Part shown: in pieces, positions 3,343-18,199 of the stretch
Layout: every line of letters begins with the position of its first letter
Numbering within the stretch: the stretch's first letter is position 1
Source: an uncultured Candidatus Saccharibacteria bacterium
Lineage (GTDB): Bacteria; Patescibacteriota; Minisyncoccia; Phycocordibacterales; WO2-35-19
Reading direction: 5' to 3'
Assembly: GCA_964392285.1 (NCBI GenBank)
Contig: CAYMOW010000002.1
Span: forward strand, 1-64,000
DNA: 64,000 bases
The notes under the pieces: model-generated
The model's database searches: none
Told to the model about the DNA's origin: nothing
Seen by the model: the letters and a program-made list of their open reading frames with translations, nothing else
Translations under genes and position numbers: made by a program

Positions 3343-4722
3343 TTGAAAACAATGATTCTGGATAAAAATAATTACCACTTTATAGGCATCGGGGGGATTG
3401 GGATTTCGGCCATTGCCCAAATGCTTTTAAGGCAAGGCAAAAAGGTCAGCGGGTCGGACCAAGCAAGGTCGGAAATTACTGATGATTTGGAAAAGCTTGG
3501 CGCCAAAATATTTATTGGTCACAAAGCCGAAAATATTACCAAGGATGTAGAAGCAGTAATTTATACCATCGCTATCCCCGACTCTAATCCCGAGATGCAA
3601 GAAGCTAGAAATAGAGTTTTCGAGACAAAATCAGCCGTAGAGCGAACATCCACAGCGAAGCGAGGACAAGAGAGCGGAACGGCTGATTTTGTCGAGAAAC
3701 CCATCATTATTGCTTCCTACCCCGAAGCGCTTGGGGAACTTTCGAAACAAAAATACACTATCGCCATTTCTGGCACTCACGGCAAAACCACGACTACAGC
3801 AATGATCGGACATATTTTGCAAAAAGCTGGTCTCGAACCAACAATTGTTGTTGGTTCGAAAATGCTCTCCGAGAACGAAAACAAAGAGAGCAATTTTTAT
3901 GGCGGGGCAGGTAAATATTTGGTAGTCGAGGCTTGCGAGTATCGACGTTCTTTTCTCAATCTTTCGCCCCAAATTCTTGTGATTACAAACATCGAAGCAG
4001 ACCACCTCGATTACTATAAAGATCTGGCCGATATCGAGAGCGCTTTCGACGAACTCAAAGCCAAAGTGCCAAAAGACGGGCAAATCATCACCGAAGCTGA
4101 ATACGAAAAGGTAGAGATAAAGAAGGAGGATCTGCTTATCCCCGGCAAGCACAATATCAAAAACGCCCAAGCCGCCGTGAAGGCCGCCGAAGCAATCGGT
4201 ATATCCGCAGAAGAAGCCAAGGAATATCTCAAGAGTTTTCGGGGTACTTGGCGTCGACTCGAATATAAAGGTACAAAACAATCACCTGATCTGAAAATTG
4301 AAAATATTTTTTACGACGACTATGCTCATCATCCGAGCGAAATCAAGGCTTCCCTTTTGGCCTTGCGCGAGAGATATCCAGAGCACCACCTCATCGCCAT
4401 CTTCGAACCACACCAACAAAGTCGGACCAAACTACTCTTTGATGATTTTGTCTCATCGCTCTCTTTGGCTGACCTAGTCTTCATTGCACCAATCTACAAG
4501 GCGCGCGAGACACCCGACCCCACCATCTCCAACCAAATCTTGGCCGAAGCAGTCAACAAATTTAAGCCGAGTATGGCAGTGGAGGGCGTAGAAGAATTGA
4601 AAGAGAAACTATCACCCCCTAACCCCCTCTTGTATCAAGAGGGGGGACCAGACACAAAAACTTGTATCGTCCTAATGGGCGCAGGTGATATCTACAAATG
4701 GACACCTGCTCTCCTTGCCTAA
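3343..4722 (+). CDS. murC: UDP-N-acetylmuramate--L-alanine ligase MurC
   Basis: HFIGIGGIGISAIAQMLLRQGKKVSGSD N-terminus, IAISGTHGKTTTTAMIGHIL P-loop and a C-terminal Mur ligase domain; contains a roughly 30-aa insertion (KSAVERTSTAKRGQESGTADFVEK). Confidence 0.9.
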   Translation: MKTMILDKNNYHFIGIGGIGISAIAQMLLRQGKKVSGSDQARSEITDDLEKLGAKIFIGHKAENITKDVEAVIYTIAIPDSNPEMQEARNRVFETKSAVERTSTAKRGQESGTADFVEKPIIIASYPEALGELSKQKYTIAISGTHGKTTTTAMIGHILQKAGLEPTIVVGSKMLSENENKESNFYGGAGKYLVVEACEYRRSFLNLSPQILVITNIEADHLDYYKDLADIESAFDELKAKVPKDGQIITEAEYEKVEIKKEDLLIPGKHNIKNAQAAVKAAEAIGISAEEAKEYLKSFRGTWRRLEYKGTKQSPDLKIENIFYDDYAHHPSEIKASLLALRERYPEHHLIAIFEPHQQSRTKLLFDDFVSSLSLADLVFIAPIYKARETPDPTISNQILAEAVNKFKPSMAVEGVEELKEKLSPPNPLLYQEGGPDTKTCIVLMGAGDIYKWTPALLA

Positions 4723-4728
4723 CCAAAA

Positions 4729-4744
4729 TTTCGCGGCCGCGAAA
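4729..4744. terminator. GC palindrome TTTCGCGGCCGCGAAA immediately after murC
   Basis: Perfect inverted repeat directly downstream of the murC stop; flanked by A/T runs. Confidence 0.4.
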
Positions 4745-4777
4745 AAATGGTTGATTCAAAAATTTAAAATATTAATG

Positions 4778-4811
4778 CTCAACTAGTTGACCGATCGGTC
4801 AGCTAGTTGAG
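4778..4811. repeat. 34-nt near-perfect palindrome CTCAACTAGTTGACCGATCGGTCAGCTAGTTGAG
   Basis: Read directly from the sequence; one mismatch from perfect dyad symmetry. Sits in a 450-bp hairpin-rich non-coding stretch (further hairpins at 4829..4855 and 4884..4913). Confidence 0.5.
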
Positions 4812-5174
4812 ATTTACACAAACAAATTGTGCGTGGCGATACTTCTGCCACGCACGTTACGGATTGATCTGTTCTTGTTTTTTCCGCCCGCAGATCACCT
4901 CTGCGAGGCGGGCAAAAAAGTATGGCACGGCCATTAGGCCGAGCCAAAAACCGATAGCGAGTGAGGTTTTGAACCTCACTTGTTCCCCCTTCCCCAACCC
5001 CTCTTGGGGTCGGAAAGAAAACTCAAAAAAAGCGCGGTGATCGCAACAACCGTAGGGATCACCGACGGAAAAACCAGCTGAAGAATCTTTCTCATCTAAA
5101 AACCATTATTGCATAAAAGGCCTAAAAGACAAAATGTGGAAAAAAAGGATAAGTTTTGGTAGACTCTTAGGAGC

Positions 5175-5257
5175 GCGTCGGTGGTAGAGTGGTCAATTAC
5201 AACAGACTGTAAATCTGTCGGCTTCGGCCTACGCAGGTTCGAATCCTGCCCGGCGCA
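5175..5257 (+). tRNA. tRNA-Tyr (anticodon GTA), long variable arm
   Basis: Folded by hand: acceptor GCGTCGG/CCGGCGC, D-arm GTAG-AGTGGTCAA-TTAC, anticodon stem ACAGA/TCTGT with loop CTGTAAA, variable arm CGGCTTCGGCCTAC, T-arm GCAGG-TTCGAAT-CCTGC. CCA is not encoded. Confidence 0.85.
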
Positions 5258-5261
5258 CAAG

Positions 5262-5290
5262 AAAAAATCCGCACCTGCGGATTTTTTTGT
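5262..5290 (+). terminator. rho-independent terminator after tRNA-Tyr
   Basis: AAAAAATCCGCACCTGCGGATTTTTTTGT: hairpin plus T-run. Confidence 0.6.
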
Positions 5291-5443
5291 GCGTCGGGAG
5301 GAAAAGCGTGGGACGCTTTTCCGTCAGGATTCGAACGACGGAGCGGGACCCACTTTAGCAAAAGTGGGAGCGAGTCGGTGCCCAGACCAAAAATTTGTGG
5401 CTGACAAATTTTTGAGTCGAGGGAGAAATTCCTGCCCGGCGCA
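5291..5443 (+). ncRNA. tRNA-Tyr-derived / tRNA-like structured element (unknown identity)
   Basis: Begins with the same GCGTCGG as the tRNA-Tyr 5' acceptor strand and ends with TCCTGCCCGGCGCACA, identical to the tRNA-Tyr 3' T-stem plus acceptor. The interior has no D or anticodon arm but four strong hairpins (GGAAAAGCG-TGGGA-CGCTTTTCC; CCGTC-AGGATTCGAAC-GACGG; CCCACTTT-AGCA-AAAGTGGG; CAAAAATTTGT-GGCTG-ACAAATTTTTG). Confidence 0.3.
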
Positions 5444-5448
5444 CAGAG

Positions 5449-10261: not shown

Positions 10262-11749
10262 ATGCCAAATCAAAATTCTCAAAACCGAATAAGGCGGGCG
10301 CCGGTCGTGGCTGTGCTTGGCCATATTGATCATGGCAAATCTACTCTGCTTGATTACATCAGGAAATCCAACACTGTGGAAAAAGAGGTTGGCGGTATTA
10401 CCCAACACTTGAGCGCTTACGAAGCCGAAGTTGGCCCCGATAAACGCAAGATCACCTTCCTCGATACGCCCGGCCACGAGGCTTTTTGTGCCATAAGAGA
10501 ACGCGGTAGCCGTGTCGCCGACATCGCCATTTTGGTCGTCTCGGCTGAAGATGGAGTCAAACCGCAAACAATCGAAGCGATCAAATGTATCTGCGCCGAG
10601 GCGACACCTTTTATCGTCGCCATCAACAAAATCGACAAACCCAACGCCAACATCGAAAAAACCAAACAGGACCTAGCCGGACAAGAAGTCTTTGTTGAAG
10701 GTTGGGGCGGAACCGTGCCAGTCGTGAATATTTCAGCCAAAAAAGGTGACGGCGTAGCCGAACTACTCGAGATGATTTTGCTTCAAGCCGATCTACTCGA
10801 GCTCGAAAGCGACCCTCTTGCACCAGCCGAAGGTTTTGTGATCGAGAGTGCCAAAGATACCAAGAACGGTGTTTCGGCGACCTTGATCATCAAAAATGGT
10901 CAGCTCAAAAAAGGTACCTATGTGGCCAGTCAAGGCGGTTTTGTGGCTGTGCGCCAAATCGAAACTTTTGACGGCCAAAAAATCGATCGAGCCGAAGCTT
11001 CGATGCCGATCAGACTGACCGGCTGGAACGGCCTGCCGATTGTCGGTGAAGATTTTGCAAGCTTCGACTCCAAATCAGAAGCCGAAGAATACGTCAGCCA
11101 ATTAGCGAGAAAAACCGAAACTCAAAAAATCTTTGGCCAAAACGAGGCCGGCTGTTCTTGCCTACCAATCATCATCAAAGCTGATGCCCAAGGCTCGCTC
11201 GAAGCAATCGAAAACGAATTTAACAAAATCAATATCTCTGGCATCAATCTAAAAATAATTGCCGATGGTATCGGCCCAATCACCGAAGGTGATGTCAAAA
11301 CCGCGGTCTCGAGCAAAGCGGTTATGATCGGCTTCAATGTTCCGACCGACAAAAATGCAAACGCTCTCGGTTTGCGCGACGCAGTCGAGATCAGAAACTT
11401 TTCGATTATCTACGAACTAACCGATTGGCTCAAAGAAAAACTCCAAGAACTCGCACCCAAAGAAAAACAAGAAGTCATAACCGCCAAAGTTAAGATTCTC
11501 AAAGTCTTCAGCCAGAGCAAAGACAAACAAGTCATTGGTTGCCGAGCCGAGGATGGCGAGGTCAAGTCTGGACAGGTGGCGCGCATCTTTCGACGTGAAG
11601 CCCAGATCGGCGAAGGCCGTATCCGCGAACTCCAATCTCAAAAACAAAAAGTTGGTTCGATCGAACAAGGCCAAGAATTTGGAATGCTGTTCGAATCCAA
11701 AACCGAAGTTGCTCCGGGCGATTATCTCGAGATTGTCAGCTTATCCTAA
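10262..11749 (+). CDS. infB: translation initiation factor IF-2 (short form, lacks the N-terminal domains)
   Basis: G-domain VVAVLGHIDHGKSTLLD, DTPGHEAF, NKID, followed by the IF-2 beta-barrel domains. Confidence 0.9.
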   Translation: MPNQNSQNRIRRAPVVAVLGHIDHGKSTLLDYIRKSNTVEKEVGGITQHLSAYEAEVGPDKRKITFLDTPGHEAFCAIRERGSRVADIAILVVSAEDGVKPQTIEAIKCICAEATPFIVAINKIDKPNANIEKTKQDLAGQEVFVEGWGGTVPVVNISAKKGDGVAELLEMILLQADLLELESDPLAPAEGFVIESAKDTKNGVSATLIIKNGQLKKGTYVASQGGFVAVRQIETFDGQKIDRAEASMPIRLTGWNGLPIVGEDFASFDSKSEAEEYVSQLARKTETQKIFGQNEAGCSCLPIIIKADAQGSLEAIENEFNKINISGINLKIIADGIGPITEGDVKTAVSSKAVMIGFNVPTDKNANALGLRDAVEIRNFSIIYELTDWLKEKLQELAPKEKQEVITAKVKILKVFSQSKDKQVIGCRAEDGEVKSGQVARIFRREAQIGEGRIRELQSQKQKVGSIEQGQEFGMLFESKTEVAPGDYLEIVSLS

Positions 11750-11804: not shown

Positions 11805-11876
11805 GGCCTAGTCGCCAAGTGGTAAGGCAAGGGTCTGCAAAACCCTTATACGGCGGTTCGATTCCGCCCTAGGCCT
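11805..11876 (+). tRNA. tRNA-Cys (GCA)
   Basis: Acceptor GGCCTAG/CTAGGCC, 3-bp D-stem, anticodon loop CTGCAAA, T-arm GGCGG-TTCGATT-CCGCC. Confidence 0.8.
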
Positions 11877-11942
11877 CAAAACATAGCCAGCTGATACACT
11901 AATTTTATAAAAGAGAATCGCCAAACCGTTTTGAAACTTCTG

Positions 11943-12024
11943 TGCCTGGGGCGGGCATCGAACCCACATCTCTTTCGAGACACGATTTTAAGTCGTGCGC
12001 GTATACCAATTCCGCCACCCAGGC
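11943..12024 (-). tRNA. tRNA-Leu (TAA), long variable arm
   Basis: Reverse complement gives GCCTGGGTGGCGGAATTGGTA...CACGA-CTTAAAA-TCGTG..GGGTTCGATGCCC..CCCAGGC. Confidence 0.8.
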
Positions 12025-12086
12025 TTTGTGTTTATATTATATGCTATTTGAGAAATTACAAATTTTGCTGTATATTTTCTTCTATA

Positions 12087-12159
12087 CCGCCCATAGCTCA
12101 GCTGGTAGAGCAGACGCCTCTTAAGCGTAAGGTCCTAGGTTCGAACCCTAGTGGGCGGA
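12087..12159 (+). tRNA. tRNA-Lys (CTT)
   Basis: Acceptor CCGCCCA/TGGGCGG, D-arm GCTC-AGCTGGTA-GAGC, anticodon loop CTCTTAA, T-arm CTAGG-TTCGAAC-CCTAG. There is one mismatch at the top of the anticodon stem. Confidence 0.7.
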
Positions 12160-12203
12160 CACGAGTAAAAAATATGAACTGCTTCATATTTTTTACTCGT
12201 GTC
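12158..12203. terminator. 20-bp perfect hairpin after tRNA-Lys
   Basis: GACACGAGTAAAAAATATGAA-CTGC-TTCATATTTTTTACTCGTGTC. Confidence 0.6.
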
Positions 12204-12493
12204 CGAGCCGGAGCGATGTTTTTGTTTGAGCTTTGCTCAAGGCAAAAACCGCGAGGCGGGATCGCAGAAAATTTGAGTCAGCAAATTTATCTGTGATGAC
12301 AATGTCCGAGGCGGAGCCATGTTTTGATAGCAATCAAAACAGGCGAGCCGGGTGAGAAGCGAATACTTGGAGCTTCGCAAGACTCATTGAGCTCGAGTCC
12401 TCGAGAGCCAATGAGTGGACAGATCCTGTAAGGATTGCGGAAATTTTCGAGCGACGGCGAGAAAATTATCCGTGACGACAAGATAGAATCGAT

Positions 12494-12575
12494 GCTGGGG
12501 TGGCGTAATTGGTAGCCGCGCTAGTCTTAGGAACTAGTGGAGTAATCCGTGGGAGTTCAAGTCTCCCCCCCAGCA
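12494..12575 (+). tRNA. tRNA-Leu (TAG), long variable arm
   Basis: Acceptor GCTGGGG/CCCCAGC, anticodon stem CTAGT/ACTAG with loop CTTAGGA, variable arm GGAGTAATCCGT, T-arm GGGAG-TTCAAGT-CTCCC. Confidence 0.8.
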
Positions 12576-12706
12576 CAGATTGAGCACGGCGAAAGCTGTG
12601 CTGGGGGTGCAGCTTTATGCAATAAAGCGTAGCACTGACTTGAAAGCCGGAGCGCGACGGCGCGAGGCGGGGTCGACCAAATTTTCAGCAGAAAATTATG
12701 GGTGAC

Positions 12707-12726
12707 CAAGTCTCCCCCCCAGCACA
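12707..12726 (+). repeat. direct repeat of the tRNA-Leu(TAG) 3' end (CAAGTCTCCCCCCCAGCACA)
   Basis: 20-nt exact copy of 12558..12577, about 130 nt downstream of the tRNA. The 12205..12700 region also carries three copies of a GCCGGAGCG...GCGAGGCGGG module and AAAATTAT[CG][CG]GTGA[CT]GAC modules. Confidence 0.6.
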
Positions 12727-12768
12727 AATGCAAAACTCGCCTTTTGGGCGAGTTTTGCATTTTGTGAT

Positions 12769-13094
12769 CCTCATTCTCATAAGCCGAATTCTGTTTCTTT
12801 GCAATAATTTATCTAGGTCCTAGATTGCTCTAGGACTCGAGCGGCACTCCCCTCGATTGCTTTCGGGGCACGGCCTTGCACAGAAGTAAGAGTTTAGTCG
12901 TTGCACCCGTATGTTGCCATACGATTACTCCACAAGGGAGCTCCTTGCCTTTCGGCTTGGACGTCACTGTTCGCATCTCGCGCCTCACGGCGGACGGGCA
13001 TTACCCGCTACTTGGCTCTCCAATCGAAATTGGAGCTGTGTTCGGACTTTCCTCTCCGACTAAAACGTCGGAGCTATTGCTCGGAATGAGAATC
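12769..13094 (-). ncRNA. rnpB: RNase P RNA (rnpB) candidate
   Basis: The minus-strand RNA contains the universal CR-I-like GAGAGGAAAGUCCGAAC near its 5' end and a CR-V-like AACAGAAUUCGGCUUAU near its 3' end. The P4 partners are GUCCGAA and UUCGGCU. The terminal P1 pairing is UCUCAUUC...GAGAAUGAG. The whole is about 326 nt and GC-rich. Confidence 0.6.
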
Positions 13095-13205: not shown

Positions 13206-14252
13206 ATGGCTAGCGCACCACCAATTGAACTTCAAGAAGGGGCAGTGCCCAGACCAAGATATCAACTCTTCACTGATTGCCCCCAAGATTGGTTCTTGGT
13301 GGTCGTACGTGGGGGGGACATTCACAAGATCGTCCATTCTGTAAAAGGGTGGCGAGTAAACGAAGAGTTTGAGTTCGTAACAGAAGATGCTACGAACAAA
13401 AACTTGATCACCCCTCTTCGAGCCCTGACAGGCTACGAATTTGTGGGTGTCCCGGGTTTCCAGGGGCTAAAAGTAATAAAGTTCGCCTGGAATAAATACT
13501 GGCGAACAGATGAAAACAGTCCAATCTACGGGGTGGTCGCTCACGACCCACAACTCGTTTATGTGTTCCCGTTCGAATCTCAATACCCTCTTACGTACGA
13601 AGGAATTGATACGGTGGCACAAAACCGAATAAAACCGGAAGAGTTGTCGCTCGTAGCGGTAACTTTTGTGGTCACGGTCCGAGTCAGGATGCTACGACCA
13701 CGGATCGCACTCGCTACAAACATCGATTGGTTCGGGGGGGTGCTTATTCCAAAACTCCAAGGAGTCCTGAAGGATTTCGCTGGAGAGAAAAGTTACGACG
13801 AACTGATTCGGGGGGCAAGGAAGACGGTTACGCAAGAACTCGAAGAGTTTGTGATGGGGACCAACCAGACCCCTAGTAAATTTCGGGAGAAAATTCTTCA
13901 AACGGCAGGAGTCGACATCATCGACTTTAGCCTAGTAGACATCAAACCCAACAAGGCCTTCGAAGACGCCCAAAATGAATTGGCTTCCGAACAACGAAAG
14001 GCCTCCGGGGTCATCGTCACAGCCGAAGCGGCCAAACAAGCCAAGATCCTGGAGGGAGAAGGACTGGAAGCATACGAAGCCGCGATAGGTAGGGGTAAGG
14101 CAACCGCGATAAAAGCCATCCGTGAAGCTGCGGGTTCCGACTCAGAGACCTACTTCAAGTGGGACGGGATGAAAAGTTCGAAACTGGGTACCTACGCGGA
14201 AGGTACCAGCAAGGCTAGCATCCTGGTCGGCCCTGACGGCAGACCTATCTAG
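13206..14252 (+). CDS. SPFH/band-7 (stomatin-prohibitin-flotillin-HflK/C-like) domain protein, no TM segment
   Basis: Strong RBS AGGGAGG. The C-terminal half matches the band-7 pattern (GVDIIDFSLVDIKPNKAFEDAQNELASEQRKASGVIVTAEAAKQAKILEGEGLEAYEAAIGRGKAT); the N-terminal roughly 150 aa are unique. Confidence 0.55.
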   Translation: MASAPPIELQEGAVPRPRYQLFTDCPQDWFLVVVRGGDIHKIVHSVKGWRVNEEFEFVTEDATNKNLITPLRALTGYEFVGVPGFQGLKVIKFAWNKYWRTDENSPIYGVVAHDPQLVYVFPFESQYPLTYEGIDTVAQNRIKPEELSLVAVTFVVTVRVRMLRPRIALATNIDWFGGVLIPKLQGVLKDFAGEKSYDELIRGARKTVTQELEEFVMGTNQTPSKFREKILQTAGVDIIDFSLVDIKPNKAFEDAQNELASEQRKASGVIVTAEAAKQAKILEGEGLEAYEAAIGRGKATAIKAIREAAGSDSETYFKWDGMKSSKLGTYAEGTSKASILVGPDGRPI

Positions 14253-15553: not shown

Positions 15554-15823
15554 TTACGACTCGCCGAAGAATGATGGCACAGGAATACCGAAGGTGTTTA
15601 GCACCAAACGCAAGATGCCGTAGACGCTAAACATTACAAACATCCCAATGATACCGTAGAACACATTCATCTTCTTCTTTTCCAAATCCGAACCATCGGC
15701 TCCAGCTATGAGCCCGATAATGCCGTAAAAGAAGAATATAGTCGCCACCACAAAACCCAGAACGATAATCGGATTGATGATGTAGGTGGCTATTTTGCCG
15801 AGCAGGTTCGTAACAGCTGGCAT
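15554..15823 (-). CDS. small two-TM membrane protein, paralog 1 of a seven-member family (VirB2/TrbC-pilin-like?)
   Basis: Helix-charged loop-helix architecture: FFFYGIIGLIAGADGSDLEKKKMNVFYGIIGMFVMFSVYGIL. Confidence 0.65.
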   Translation of the reverse strand: MPAVTNLLGKIATYIINPIIVLGFVVATIFFFYGIIGLIAGADGSDLEKKKMNVFYGIIGMFVMFSVYGILRLVLNTFGIPVPSFFGES

Positions 15824-15826
15824 GTC

Positions 15827-16177
15827 TTATCTTGGAACAAGTTGACGAACATTAAAACCAGGACCCGTACCTGTGTCAATTCCCAAAGCATCACCGAGGA
15901 ATGCTACCAAACCCCAGACAGCAGCCATGACAAAGATGGCCACAACGCCCCAGATCATGGTCTTCTTGGCCTGATCTGCTTTGTGTTCGCCACCAAAGAT
16001 ATACATAGCCAAGCCCCAGAAGAAGAAGAGCATTGCCAAGGCAAAGATGATTGGGATCAGGATATTTATGATATCACCAATCGATTCTGCCAAGCTTTTG
16101 ACATTATTAAGCTCCTGACCAAAAGCCAAAACTGGCGAAGCCAGAGCAACTATTCCGAATGAAATTAATTTTTTCAT
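15827..16177 (-). CDS. small secreted two-TM protein, paralog 2 (signal peptide + pilin-like core)
   Basis: MKKLISFGIVALASPVLAFGQ signal peptide, then core FFWGLAMYIFGGEHKADQAKKTMIWGVVAIFVMAAVWGLVAF. Confidence 0.7.
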   Translation of the reverse strand: MKKLISFGIVALASPVLAFGQELNNVKSLAESIGDIINILIPIIFALAMLFFFWGLAMYIFGGEHKADQAKKTMIWGVVAIFVMAAVWGLVAFLGDALGIDTGTGPGFNVRQLVPR

Positions 16178-16286
16178 TATTTTGTTTTTAATAATTTATT
16201 TAATAACCAAACGACCTAATAATTGAATACATTATAACACTTTCATCCATCTTTTCCAAACTAATTATGTTAATTATGTTTAGATT

Positions 16287-16634
16287 CTAGTAATTTATTC
16301 TTGGCATATTAATGGTATTGCGTTCATCAATACCCAATTCTTGCCTAAAGAACCTCACAAGACCCCAAACAGAAGATATCACAAAGAGCGCAACGACACC
16401 CCAAACCATCACATTTTTCCCCTCTGCTTTGCCATCACCCTCAGATTTGATGTACTTGGCCACACCCCAGAAGAAATAAAGCAAAGCCAAAGTGAAAGCT
16501 ATCGGAATCAAATAAGCACCTACTATGTTATCAACACTGCTTATTATTCTTTCTGTCCCTTGTAAAGCCTGCGCACCTACCACCGTCGGTAAAACTAACA
16601 AAGCCGGCACAATAGAATATTTGAAAAATTTCAT
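16287..16634 (-). CDS. small secreted two-TM protein, paralog 3
   Basis: Signal peptide MKFFKYSIVPALLVLPTVVGAQA, core YFFWGVAKYIKSEGDGKAEGKNVMVWGVVALFVISSVWGLVRF. Confidence 0.7.
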   Translation of the reverse strand: MKFFKYSIVPALLVLPTVVGAQALQGTERIISSVDNIVGAYLIPIAFTLALLYFFWGVAKYIKSEGDGKAEGKNVMVWGVVALFVISSVWGLVRFFRQELGIDERNTINMPRINY

Positions 16635-16649
16635 ATAATTATAAATTTA

Positions 16650-16952
16650 TTAATTATTTTTAACTTCTACTTTGATTGGAATGTTGGAAAGGCCGAGTTC
16701 GCTTCGGATAAAGGCCACAATACCCCAGACCGAAAAGGCCACAAAGAGTCCGATGATACCCGAAACCATAATCCGCCTACCCTCTTCGGCCGCCTTGTCG
16801 CTACTTGCGCCCTCCTTGATATATTTTGCCACACCCCAAAAGAAATACAACAAGCAAAGTGAAAAAGCCAGTGGTATGAGTATGCTGTTCACTATGCCGA
16901 ATGCTGAATCTATGAGGTCGCCAAGTTTCATCCCGTTAGTGAAAAATGGCAT
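16650..16952 (-). CDS. small two-TM protein, paralog 4
   Basis: Core YFFWGVAKYIKEGASSDKAAEEGRRIMVSGIIGLFVAFSVWGIVAFI; about 85% identity to paralog 3 in the core. Confidence 0.7.
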   Translation of the reverse strand: MPFFTNGMKLGDLIDSAFGIVNSILIPLAFSLCLLYFFWGVAKYIKEGASSDKAAEEGRRIMVSGIIGLFVAFSVWGIVAFIRSELGLSNIPIKVEVKNN

Positions 16953-17087
16953 TGCTTTTTTGAAAAGCCACCATTTTATTTTTTAGTTTGTAATTCATAT
17001 AAATATCGACTTAATATATTATAACTCGATTGAAAAAGCTTTTCTATGCCATTTTCTACTACGGGATTCATATTACAATTTTCAATC

Positions 17088-17369
17088 TTAAATCTTAAAA
17101 TTGATTTGCGGTATGCCGACCGGACTGTTCCAACCAAACTCTGAGCGCAAAAAGACCATAATGCCCCAGATAGTCGTCAGCACAAAGAGACCGATTATAC
17201 CCCAGATGAGCAGGTTTTTGCTCTCTTTGAGCTCCTTCTCATTGCCCGCAGCTCGAATAAACCGCCCCACTCCAAGCACAAAGACCAAAAAGGCCACCAC
17301 GCCCAAAAACGGAATAATCTTCATTCCGAGGTCGGTGAACATCTTTACTACTTCGCCAAGGTTTTTCAT
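17088..17369 (-). CDS. small two-TM protein, paralog 5
   Basis: Core VFVLGVGRFIRAAGNEKELKESKNLLIWGIIGLFVLTTIWGIMVF. Confidence 0.65.
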   Translation of the reverse strand: MKNLGEVVKMFTDLGMKIIPFLGVVAFLVFVLGVGRFIRAAGNEKELKESKNLLIWGIIGLFVLTTIWGIMVFLRSEFGWNSPVGIPQINFKI

Positions 17370-17381
17370 AATTTGTCTTTT

Positions 17382-17795
17382 TTATGAGCGCAATTGGTCT
17401 ATCGTGCCACCTATCGCTTCAGATATAACCCAAGCACCGAGGAGTATAGCTGCCCCGATCACTCCATAAAGCAAGGTGTCGTGGGCTGTTTTGATTTTAC
17501 CCGTATCGCCTCTTGCTGTGACATAAAGAAAGCCCGCATACATTATAACCAAAACAGCAATTACTCCGCCTATAGGTATCAGTATTTCGTTTATAACCGT
17601 CTTTATAAAGTCCATCAGATTATCGCCACCCTTGAATGGATTGTCTATTTTTATATTGAATTTGACTGGACTTGGAGCCGGAGTAACCTGTGGACTTGGG
17701 GCTGGAGTAATTTGTGCCCACAAAACCACTGGAACAAAGGCAGAAAATATAACCACAACAACAAAAAGATTTTTGAATAAATTTTTGATCTTCAT
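17382..17795 (-). CDS. small secreted two-TM protein, paralog 6 (Pro/Thr-rich linker)
   Basis: Signal/TM MKIKNLFKNLFVVVVIFSAFVPVVLWA, the repeat PAPSPQVTPAPSP, and core YAGFLYVTARGDTGKIKTAHDTLLYGVIGAAILLGAWVISEAIGG. Confidence 0.65.
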   Translation of the reverse strand: MKIKNLFKNLFVVVVIFSAFVPVVLWAQITPAPSPQVTPAPSPVKFNIKIDNPFKGGDNLMDFIKTVINEILIPIGGVIAVLVIMYAGFLYVTARGDTGKIKTAHDTLLYGVIGAAILLGAWVISEAIGGTIDQLRS

Positions 17796-18199
17796 TTGTT
17801 TATTATATTAGTATAATCGCCTTTGAAAAGTGCACCAACGATGGCTTCGGTTACGAGCCAGGCCGAAAGTATGATGGCGAGTCCGATGCCAACTTTTTTC
17901 ATCATTGCAATCGATTCGCTTCTTTTGCCTGAATTGTCCGGATTGAGCATCATATTCAAGCCAGCCCAAGCAAAGACTCCAGCCGAAACCGGCACGGCAT
18001 ACTTGATCAGCTCTCTGATAATATTGTTTATAAGGGTTACAAAATCATCAAAACCACATTCCTGGTTCAGCCCGCCCGAATTGTTGCGCTGGCCACATTC
18101 GGGGATAATGCCACCTCTATTGGTCTGTGCCAGAGCCTGGCTTGGCACAAGCACCAAGAGCATAAGACAGACGAATAGTATTTTGGTTGAAGTTTTCAT
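17792..18199 (-). CDS. small secreted two-TM protein, paralog 7
   Basis: Signal peptide MKTSTKILFVCLMLLVLVPSQALA, core WAGLNMMLNPDNSGKRSESIAMMKKVGIGLAIILSAWLVTEAIVG; its stop overlaps the start of paralog 6 by 4 nt. Confidence 0.65.
   Translation of the reverse strand: MKTSTKILFVCLMLLVLVPSQALAQTNRGGIIPECGQRNNSGGLNQECGFDDFVTLINNIIRELIKYAVPVSAGVFAWAGLNMMLNPDNSGKRSESIAMMKKVGIGLAIILSAWLVTEAIVGALFKGDYTNIINK

Follow-up and report, generated by a model that had tools for sequence, protein, structure and literature searches.

The window, by which we mean the whole 64-kb stretch of DNA that was analysed, carries a small cluster of tRNA genes between the gene for IF2 and rnpB, the gene for the class A RNase P RNA (Table 1). 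The closest relatives of its IF2 protein are found in MAGs of the Patescibacteria (CPR), and an exact look-up of this protein gave no match. A sigma-70-like promoter sequence lies upstream of tRNA-Lys(ctt), and no second promoter-like site was found by consensus matching on the + strand between positions 12076 and 12765, so tRNA-Lys, the 333-nt spacer that follows it, tRNA-Leu(tag) and the 150 nt behind the latter probably form a single transcript, as judged from the promoter consensus. The convergent rnpB gene has a promoter-like site ahead of it, and a perfect 16-bp hairpin, a bidirectional terminator, separates it from the tRNA operon. This hairpin is the ancestral flank of tRNA-Leu(tag); it is also present 3' of the last tRNA-end copy in the related locus L133 and directly 3' of the tRNA in L170 (loci of related genomes are given here by such numbers). 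An SPFH gene lies beyond rnpB, and tRNA-Tyr(gta) stands apart from the cluster.

Table 1. Features of the tRNA cluster, of the tRNA-Tyr locus and of the cassettes behind their tRNA genes (positions are those of the window)
Feature	Position	Strand	Remarks
tRNA-Tyr(gta)	5175-5258	+	ARAGORN, Rfam
Tyr cassette, terminator-like hairpin	5250-5298	+	extends into tRNA 3' end
Cassette behind tRNA-Tyr	5259-5446	+	RNAfold z-score -4.17
Tyr cassette, hairpin	5300-5322	+	
Tyr cassette, inverted T-loop copy	5325-5336	+	CAGGATTCGAAC
Tyr cassette, GA helix	5336-5378	+	GAC-G-GA-GCG / GC-GA-GTC
Tyr cassette, AT-rich hairpin	5388-5414	+	
Tyr cassette, direct tRNA-end copy	5430-5445	+	TCCTGCCCGGCGCACA; first copy 5244-5259
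IF2	10262-11749		
tRNA-Cys	11805-11877		
tRNA-Leu(taa)	11942-12024	-	ARAGORN, Rfam
Sigma-70-like promoter	12048-12076	+	TTGAGA-17-TATATT, upstream of tRNA-Lys; 10/12 consensus matches
tRNA-Lys(ctt)	12087-12160	+	ARAGORN, Rfam
Perfect 23-bp hairpin	12156-12205	+	tRNA-Lys 3' end and trailer with downstream inverted arm
Unit A, type-2-like cassette behind tRNA-Lys	12200-12303	+	R1 match 12206-12297, 35.6 bits, E 8e-7
Unit B, composite cassette	12303-12483	+	read from sequence; ends in GTGACGACAAG
tRNA-Leu(tag)	12494-12576	+	ARAGORN, Rfam; CCA not encoded
Unit C, canonical type-2 cassette	12577-12726	+	R1 99.5 bits; RNAfold z-score -4.96
Unit C, spacer	12577-12595	+	~18 nt, with small GA hairpin
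Unit C, X'	12596-12607	+	CTGTGCTGGGGG, inverted acceptor 3' strand and trailer
Unit C, hairpin	12608-12634	+	
Unit C, core three-way junction	12636-12715	+	
Unit C, distal X	12707-12726	+	CAAGTCTCCCCCCCAGCACA, from T-loop C56
Perfect 16-bp hairpin, bidirectional terminator	12726-12762	.	between tRNA operon and convergent rnpB
RNase P RNA (class A), rnpB	12764-13092	-	Rfam, 111.7 bits
Promoter-like site	13129-13102	-	ahead of rnpB
SPFH gene	13206-14252		beyond rnpB, outside the repeats

The 20-mer CAAGTCTCCCCCCCAGCACA occurs exactly twice in the 64 kb, once as the end of tRNA-Leu(tag) (12558-12577) and again about 130 nt downstream (12707-12726), as the first-pass annotation of this DNA had reported. 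The two copies are 149 nt apart from start to start, the 129 nt in between contain no ORF, and there are no further copies in the window even when three mismatches are allowed (0 are expected by chance). The field of shorter repeats that it described around the tRNA is likewise present. The module GCCGGAGCG...GCGAGGCGGG is found exactly at 12207-12260 and 12646-12671 and in the variant form GGCGGAGCC...GGCGAGCCGGG at 12311-12352; the three copies of the module AAAATTATSSGTGAYGAC comprise an exact one at 12462-12479 and two with 2 mismatches each at 12283-12300 and 12692-12709 (four matches in the window versus 0.43 expected); and AAAATTAT..GTGAYGAC modules are present in the field. The tRNA-Leu(tag) 3' end pairs with the downstream CTGTGCTGGGGG in a long hairpin whose 15-nt arms (12567-12581 and 12593-12607) are 93% complementary, and the parallel that had been drawn with tRNA-Tyr, whose 3' end is repeated as TCCTGCCCGGCGCACA, holds as well. 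The flank modules are not random repeats; they are helices and loops of the conserved folded structure described below.

A direct repeat of a tRNA 3' end is the classical signature of a genomic island, and the first-pass annotation took the two copies as suggesting integrase or mini-element activity, with the SPFH gene and its membrane-protein neighbour as possible cargo. In the island version of this reading, the copies would be attL/attR scars left at the tRNA-Leu 3' end by an integrase-borne island. Both copies, however, lie upstream of rnpB and SPFH with only the ORF-free 129 nt between them, and a Pfam scan of 40 ORFs across the 64-kb window gave no integrase, recombinase, transposase or reverse-transcriptase match (34 of these ORFs have other Pfam assignments, mostly housekeeping, and six have none). 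The order tRNA-Leu(tag), terminator, rnpB (on the - strand) and SPFH is common to the window, L133 and L170/L171, and the SPFH protein of L133 is 34% identical to that of the window (E 2e-69). In L170 the SPFH gene is followed, as in the window, by a membrane-protein gene and T4SS-pilin-like genes, and in L168 the SPFH, membrane and pilin genes are kept 3' of a rearranged tRNA cluster. Because rnpB intervenes and the gene order is conserved in relatives, the SPFH/membrane pair is not cargo of the repeat; it is conserved chromosomal context, and rnpB is a neighbour that separates the repeat from the SPFH gene, not part of a cassette. This synteny and the position of the repeat refute the cargo part of the island interpretation, and the interpretation as a whole is now extremely improbable. 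What survives of the suggested integrase or mini-element activity is the mini-element, a discrete and recurring unit bounded by the repeat; no recombinase match was found among the scanned ORFs.

Comparison with related genomes bears this out. In L170/L171 the site is empty, and tRNA-Leu(tag) is followed directly by the terminator AAAGCAAAATCCGCC... and rnpB; in L133 it holds a different, shorter, truncated unit that is type-1-like, and in the window a type-2 unit (the two types are described below). The unit at tRNA-Leu(tag) is thus cleanly present or absent, with the direct repeat as the boundary, and similar units recur behind many other tRNAs of related genomes. The arrangement is therefore neither unique to the window nor identical in its relatives, which show indel polymorphism at this exact site. 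The polymorphism fits either insertion or precise deletion between the repeats, the latter including differential loss from an ancestral mixed array.

The stretches 12161-12726 and 5259-5446 contain members of a family of non-coding cassettes of 100-190 nt that, in a clade of Patescibacteria, occur immediately 3' of tRNA and tmRNA genes and in the same orientation. They read X - spacer - X' - core - X; here X stands for the last part of the preceding tRNA, from T-loop C56 to the discriminator, and X' for an inverted copy of X. The conserved core, closed by X' and the distal X, is a three-way junction that has a tandem-GA internal loop and carries two hairpins, one variable and one AT-rich. In unit C, the canonical cassette behind tRNA-Leu(tag), the core and the distal X read in order TGACTTGAA (the inverted T-loop), GCC-G-GA-GCG, a loop, CGC-GA-GGC, GGG, a long AT-rich hairpin, GTGAC and CAAGTCTCCCCCCCAGCACA. 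Two further units follow tRNA-Lys, whose own 3' end takes part in a 23-bp hairpin. Six genomes retain this hairpin, and 10 of its 23 pairs show compensatory changes, in one case at a nucleotide of the tRNA acceptor stem. Unit A has a tandem-GA helix (GCC-G-GA-GCG / CGC-GA-GGC) around a long hairpin, an AT-rich hairpin and the end GTGATGACAA, and orthologues of it lie behind tRNA-Lys in L001, L132, L140 and L170. Unit B is composite. It starts with a GA helix (GGC-G-GA-GCC / GGC-GA-GCC), and after this come the conserved GAGAAGCGAATACTTGGAGCTTCGCAAGAC block, a long hairpin, a second hairpin whose loop is CUGUAAG, and an AT-rich hairpin with CGAGCGACGGCGAG at its tip. Both the 30-nt block and the CUGUAAG hairpin are found again behind tRNA-Lys in L133. 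Units A and B both end in GTGAYGACAA, in which the tRNA-Lys end is copied in short and degenerate form; the tRNA of L133 has GCGCACA where that of the window has GCGGACA, and the ends of the units have GACCACA where those of the window have GACGACA.

A covariance model, R1, was built from 13 type-2 cores. Run over the 64 kb with filters off, it found unit C (99.5 bits), unit A (35.6 bits) and two weak partial matches, one of 14.3 bits to the last hairpin alone of unit B (12432-12476) and one of 13.9 bits to the Tyr unit. All of these lie behind tRNAs and their scores are divergent; the family is therefore confined to tRNA flanks in the window, and its paralogues are old. An Rfam search of 12150-12780 at a permissive threshold gave noise besides the tRNA, and no Rfam family covers the units in the relatives. 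Several known types of element and RNA were considered and set aside. A MITE would not fit, as the copies are divergent and occur behind tRNAs only, and the "duplication" is always a tRNA end and not an arbitrary target; the bulge is 1 nt, not the 3 of a classical K-turn; a hammerhead or other self-cleaving ribozyme has no Rfam match and the wrong junction order; and in a retroviral-type primer-binding site the inverted arm would have to fit CCA, whereas here it fits the genomic trailer. A T-box, a box C/D-like guide and a tRNA pseudogene or split tRNA were also dropped.

Loci from related genomes were retrieved through their IF2 gene, a choice that is independent of the repeats. The tRNA cluster is conserved in these loci, and each of their units closes with a copy of the 3' end of the tRNA to which it belongs. 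Such units lie behind tRNA-Leu(tag) in L001, L003, L132 and L133, as two tandem units of different type behind tRNA-Leu(cag) in L003, and as two identical units behind tRNA-Lys in L168; L168 also has a canonical type-2 unit (R1 61.3 bits) behind tRNA-Tyr, at the site of the window's Tyr cassette. A metagenome scan with a type-2 core pattern gave 32 loci, one of which is a chance match. In these scan loci the type-2 core, always after GTGAC, is joined to the ends of tRNAs Leu(tag, gag, caa), His, Val, Thr, Phe, Asp and Lys, and tmRNA is also among its targets. A second core type (type 1), a CUGUAAG-loop hairpin that runs into the T-loop copy, is found behind tRNAs Leu(tag, cag, taa), His and Arg. 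The hosts taken together are tRNAs Leu(tag, cag, gag, caa, taa), Tyr, Lys, His, Val, Thr, Phe, Asp and Arg and one tmRNA. Mixed arrays and truncated units are common among the cassette loci, and at every locus examined in detail the cassette lies behind its tRNA and is co-directional with it. A scan of viral contigs for the type-1 motif gave no match; a scan of the same kind for CCGGAGCG-N5-35-GCGAGGCGGG gave 120 stretches, all of them chance matches in GC-rich phages. A LOOT RNA lies beside the unit in L144, and its structure is unrelated to that of the cassette. The contigs L131 and L132 end at these repeats; the former, 99% identical, stops ahead of the tRNA cluster.

The arms of the cassettes follow the tRNA behind which they lie. 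The 3' arm has on average 0.6 mismatches in 14 nt to its own tRNA versus 7.5 to other tRNAs, and exact identity to the local tRNA typically extends over 19-21 nt from C56, including CCA where this is encoded in the gene; the identity block starts at C56 in type 2 and at G53/T54 in type 1. The unit of L132 that is orthologous to unit C has a different tRNA end (CAAGTCCTCTCCCCAGCAC), and both of its arms have changed in step. By a crude measure, identity is 79-90% between orthologous units and 62-69% between paralogues of the same genome, as would be expected if the units had long been maintained vertically; the IF2 proteins across the cassette genomes are only 47-68% identical.

The predicted folds are far more stable than those of shuffled sequences (z-scores -4.2 to -8.9; the Tyr unit and two relatives range from -4.2 to -7.6), and RNAfold agrees with the fold read by eye, in which X' and the distal X close the three-way junction. 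R1 was run on all retrieved loci, which gave 34 distinct sequences of the type-2 core. In these, 96.8% of the cells are paired versus 79.4% in shuffles, none of 500 shuffles reaches the observed value, controls in which the partner was slid are 35-47% paired, and 22 of the 29 pairs have changes on both sides. The retrieval pattern fixed 24 core positions for most of these sequences, so that invariance there is uninformative; the covarying pairs lie mostly outside these positions, and the units A of the window, L001, L132, L140 and L170 were found independently of the pattern. There are 69 G.U/U.G against 13 A.C/C.A pairs, or 35 against 13 without the pair that the retrieval pattern fixed. This excess of G.U over A.C indicates that the constraint would act on the tRNA-sense strand as a single strand, and as a sequence bias it favours that strand as the folded one.

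The covariation bears on the possibility that the units are function-less by-products that arose by template switching at terminator palindromes and unequal crossing-over and merely persist. Many spacers are indeed palindromes centred on a terminator hairpin and reach into the tRNA end, the identical tandem copies in L134, L138, L146 and L168 are evidence of recent unequal crossing-over, and truncated or decayed units are found in L133, L151, L165 and L144. Such an origin would not, however, put one core at unrelated tRNAs, nor does it explain an 80-nt core that has been kept, with 22 covarying pairs and conserved loops, across genomes as diverged as their IF2 proteins are. Because the core covaries, we disfavour this explanation and regard it as very unlikely.

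It has also to be considered that the cassettes could be selfish, non-autonomous integrative mini-elements that act as folded single-stranded DNA circles. X' and X would then form a double-stranded mimic of the 3' end of a tRNA gene, a host tyrosine recombinase would exchange one strand with that gene, and replication would fix the insertion; for unit C the sequence at the circle (or tandem) junction would be ...GGGTGAC-CAAGTCTCCCCCCCAGCACA-GATTGAGC. CTX phage uses XerCD at dif, and integron attC sites are likewise folded as single strands. The cassettes resemble attC and the CTX attP (IMEX) in that the imperfect hairpin stem reproduces the target, in the X - X' - X layout and in their strand-specific features; they differ in having a tRNA end as target instead of dif or attI, and in that the "loop" is a conserved three-way junction and not variable. 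By our derivation, the integrated form of such an element would be X - segment - X' - segment - X, as is found, and the strand-specific G.T bias is also compatible with folded single-stranded DNA. Within each type the identity blocks have a constant starting point in the T-loop, and the targets include tmRNA; in a 2002 survey by Williams, tRNA and tmRNA genes were reportedly typical targets of integrases, and the T-loop one of three sublocations. Tandem and mixed arrays, an orthologous site that may be empty, type-1 or type-2, and the orphan units of L147 and L158, which have no tRNA nearby, would also be expected of a mobile element.

With integrase islands the cassettes share the direct repeat that starts in the T-loop, the tRNA/tmRNA targets, the tandem arrays and the empty site; unlike such islands they are gene-less inserts of 100-190 nt for which no integrase was found, and they have an inverted copy of the target, a conserved folded core and one core on many tRNA ends. 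No recombinase was found among the 40 ORFs scanned in the window or linked to the cassettes at any locus looked at, the copies that one genome carries are not near-identical but old and divergent, and RNA is the more usual place for such strongly conserved junction sequences and for a tandem-GA motif. An element that moved to another tRNA would moreover first give rise to a chimeric, defective tRNA, and precise, repeat-mediated loss from ancestral mixed arrays accounts equally well for the polymorphism. We therefore consider a single-stranded DNA element unlikely. Its most specific form, a protein-less, self-targeting circle of ~150 nt whose arms imitate one tRNA or tmRNA 3' end, which a host recombinase inserts by single-strand exchange and of which the RtT repeats discussed below would be relics, seems to us doubtful indeed; if it were true, the choice of target would be written in the element's own arms and would hence be programmable.

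The closest parallel in design to the cassettes is in the Enterobacteria. The E. coli tyrT operon contains 178-bp repeats, each with the last 19 nt of tRNA-Tyr, and yields rtT RNA, and these RtT repeats are reported to be released as stable small RNAs by the enzymes that process tRNA ends. To our knowledge RtT is known only from behind enterobacterial tRNA-Tyr, as an orphan curiosity without a settled function. Its mode of action is given as unknown (10.1101/2024.07.17.603846). On an E. coli chromosome the order is tRNA-Tyr, RtT, tRNA-Tyr, RtT, RtT, and the tRNA-Tyr 3' end, AATCCTTCCCCCACCACCA, occurs five times at the tyrT locus. Each RtT starts with an inverted copy of the T-arm and acceptor, GGGGAAGGrTGAGAAsCTTCGA, which is 86% complementary, and in the consensus of the Rfam family RF00391 this inverted arm pairs with the tRNA-end copy as a terminal helix; the junction that the helix closes bears two hairpins, one of them of the form CGAGCG-loop-CGAG.

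RtT and the cassettes are alike in lying directly behind a tRNA on the same strand, often in tandem, in having a 5' inverted T-arm/acceptor arm and an end that is a ~19-nt copy of the tRNA 3' end, and in the terminal helix that closes a junction with a tandem-GA hairpin and a second hairpin; tRNA-Tyr precedes RtT and also one of the cassettes of the window. Unlike RtT, the cassettes are found in Patescibacteria, behind at least nine tRNA identities and tmRNA, and with at least two core types. The RF00391 covariance model has no match in the window at its gathering score, none in 12150-12780 at E<=10 and none in the relatives, and R1 has no match at the E. coli tyrT locus. Without covariance-model similarity in either direction, the link to RtT is therefore architectural only: the cassettes are built like RtT, are not assignable to RF00391, and could have come to this likeness by homology or by convergence. 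No account of tRNA-like RNAs in Patescibacteria came up in a literature search. Another functional tRNA-operon spacer, 3'ETS-leuZ of E. coli, is an sRNA sponge; the cassettes may resemble it as non-coding RNA from a tRNA precursor that may act in trans, but 3'ETS-leuZ is not known to have a tRNA-end copy or a comparable conserved fold.

We modestly favour the interpretation that the cassettes are co-transcribed, RtT-like trailer or spacer RNAs that are gained and lost through their direct repeats. They would be transcribed together with the tRNA, and by folding on itself each cassette would also prevent its additional tRNA end from pairing wrongly with the tRNA. Since the terminal helix copies the acceptor and T region, the enzymes that process tRNA ends could release the cassettes as stable small RNAs, as reported for RtT. 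At the DNA level, the direct repeats would allow tandem duplication or precise deletion. Some features sit less easily with an RtT-like trailer RNA. In many units elsewhere a terminator-like hairpin lies between the tRNA and the cassette, its stem continuing into the X:X' pairing, and such a hairpin (as in L150, L162 and L153) would restrict read-through. The terminal helix of several units takes in the discriminator and trailer as well, and it is therefore not a clean minihelix substrate for RNase P or RNase Z. Finally, one core with many tRNA ends, and the three states of the tRNA-Leu(tag) site, require some transfer between loci, which goes beyond this model.

In practice, the cassette repeats break assemblies and may be misread as integration scars or genomic islands. 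The family is also testable material: its members could show whether the acceptor/T-arm mimic is a processing signal, a decoy or a regulator, and, as a second question, how a non-coding cassette gains ends that match a new tRNA. The design of RtT is found here in a distant, genome-reduced phylum, behind many tRNAs and a tmRNA, with strong covariation of the structure and with arms that track the local tRNA, and this suggests that tRNA genes have a general and probably ancient link with small RNAs or elements imitating the tRNA end.

Type-1 units, the cassettes with a hairpin core, contain recurrent hairpins whose stems covary around an invariant CUGUAAG loop that looks like a tRNA anticodon loop with the anticodon GUA. 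Unit B, the composite cassette that lies between tRNA-Lys and tRNA-Leu(tag) (window 12303–12483, forward strand), includes the 30-nt block GAGAAGCGAATACTTGGAGCTTCGCAAGAC, and an identical copy of this block is found in another cassette-bearing genome (L133, 8788–8975) whose IF2 is only 61% identical.

A cassette is also found behind a tmRNA gene. In L144 the tmRNA gene (81 bits) has behind it, in this order, a type-2 cassette (the class with a three-way junction core) with arms that agree with the 3' end of the tmRNA, and a LOOT RNA (RF03000; 71 bits). The latter was considered as possible cassette kin and rejected, its structure being unrelated to the cassettes. The coordinates of this array and of several features of the window are collected in the table.

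Locations of the tmRNA-associated array in L144 and of features of the window
Feature	Location	Strand	Remarks
tmRNA gene, then type-2 cassette, then LOOT RNA	L144 5511–6298	-	
Non-coding stretch, 450 nt	window 4723–5174		upstream of tRNA-Tyr; several strong palindromes
Hairpin, bidirectional terminator	window 12726–12762		common to tRNA operon and RNase P RNA gene
RNase P RNA gene	window 12764–13092	-	convergent with tRNA operon
Promoter-like site	window 13129–13102		
Run of six small membrane proteins (89–137 aa)	window 15554–18199	-	

The palindromes upstream of tRNA-Tyr include 4773–4816 and 4721–4752, and the word GCGAGGCGGG lies within a terminator-like hairpin (4885–4912) 5' of that gene. 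The six-gene membrane protein run shows synteny with the SPFH/membrane pair; its equivalents in L168 and L170 are assigned to T4SS_pilin (PF18895).

Small homing-endonuclease-like ORFs adjoin cassette-carrying tRNA genes in three other loci: a GIY-YIG ORF ends 2 nt upstream of tRNA-Tyr in L168 (2227–2514), and ORFs with faint LAGLIDADG_3 matches adjoin tRNA-Cys in L170 (9890–10624) and L171 (8233–8913). No counterpart of these ORFs was seen in the window.

In two independent assemblies of close relatives (L131 and L132) the contigs end at the cluster of tRNAs and cassettes or inside it, which suggests that the repeats break assemblies and that tandem cassette copy numbers, such as those in L146, may not be reliable. 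The gene order of the tRNA cluster 3' of IF2 differs among relatives: tRNA-Leu(taa) of the window (11942–12024) has the opposite orientation to that in L001 and L003, L132 (7100–7808) carries the Lys-to-Leu(tag) block in inverted form, and the tRNA order is reshuffled in L168 (9482–10255). Such inversions could be mediated by inverted copies of tRNA ends.
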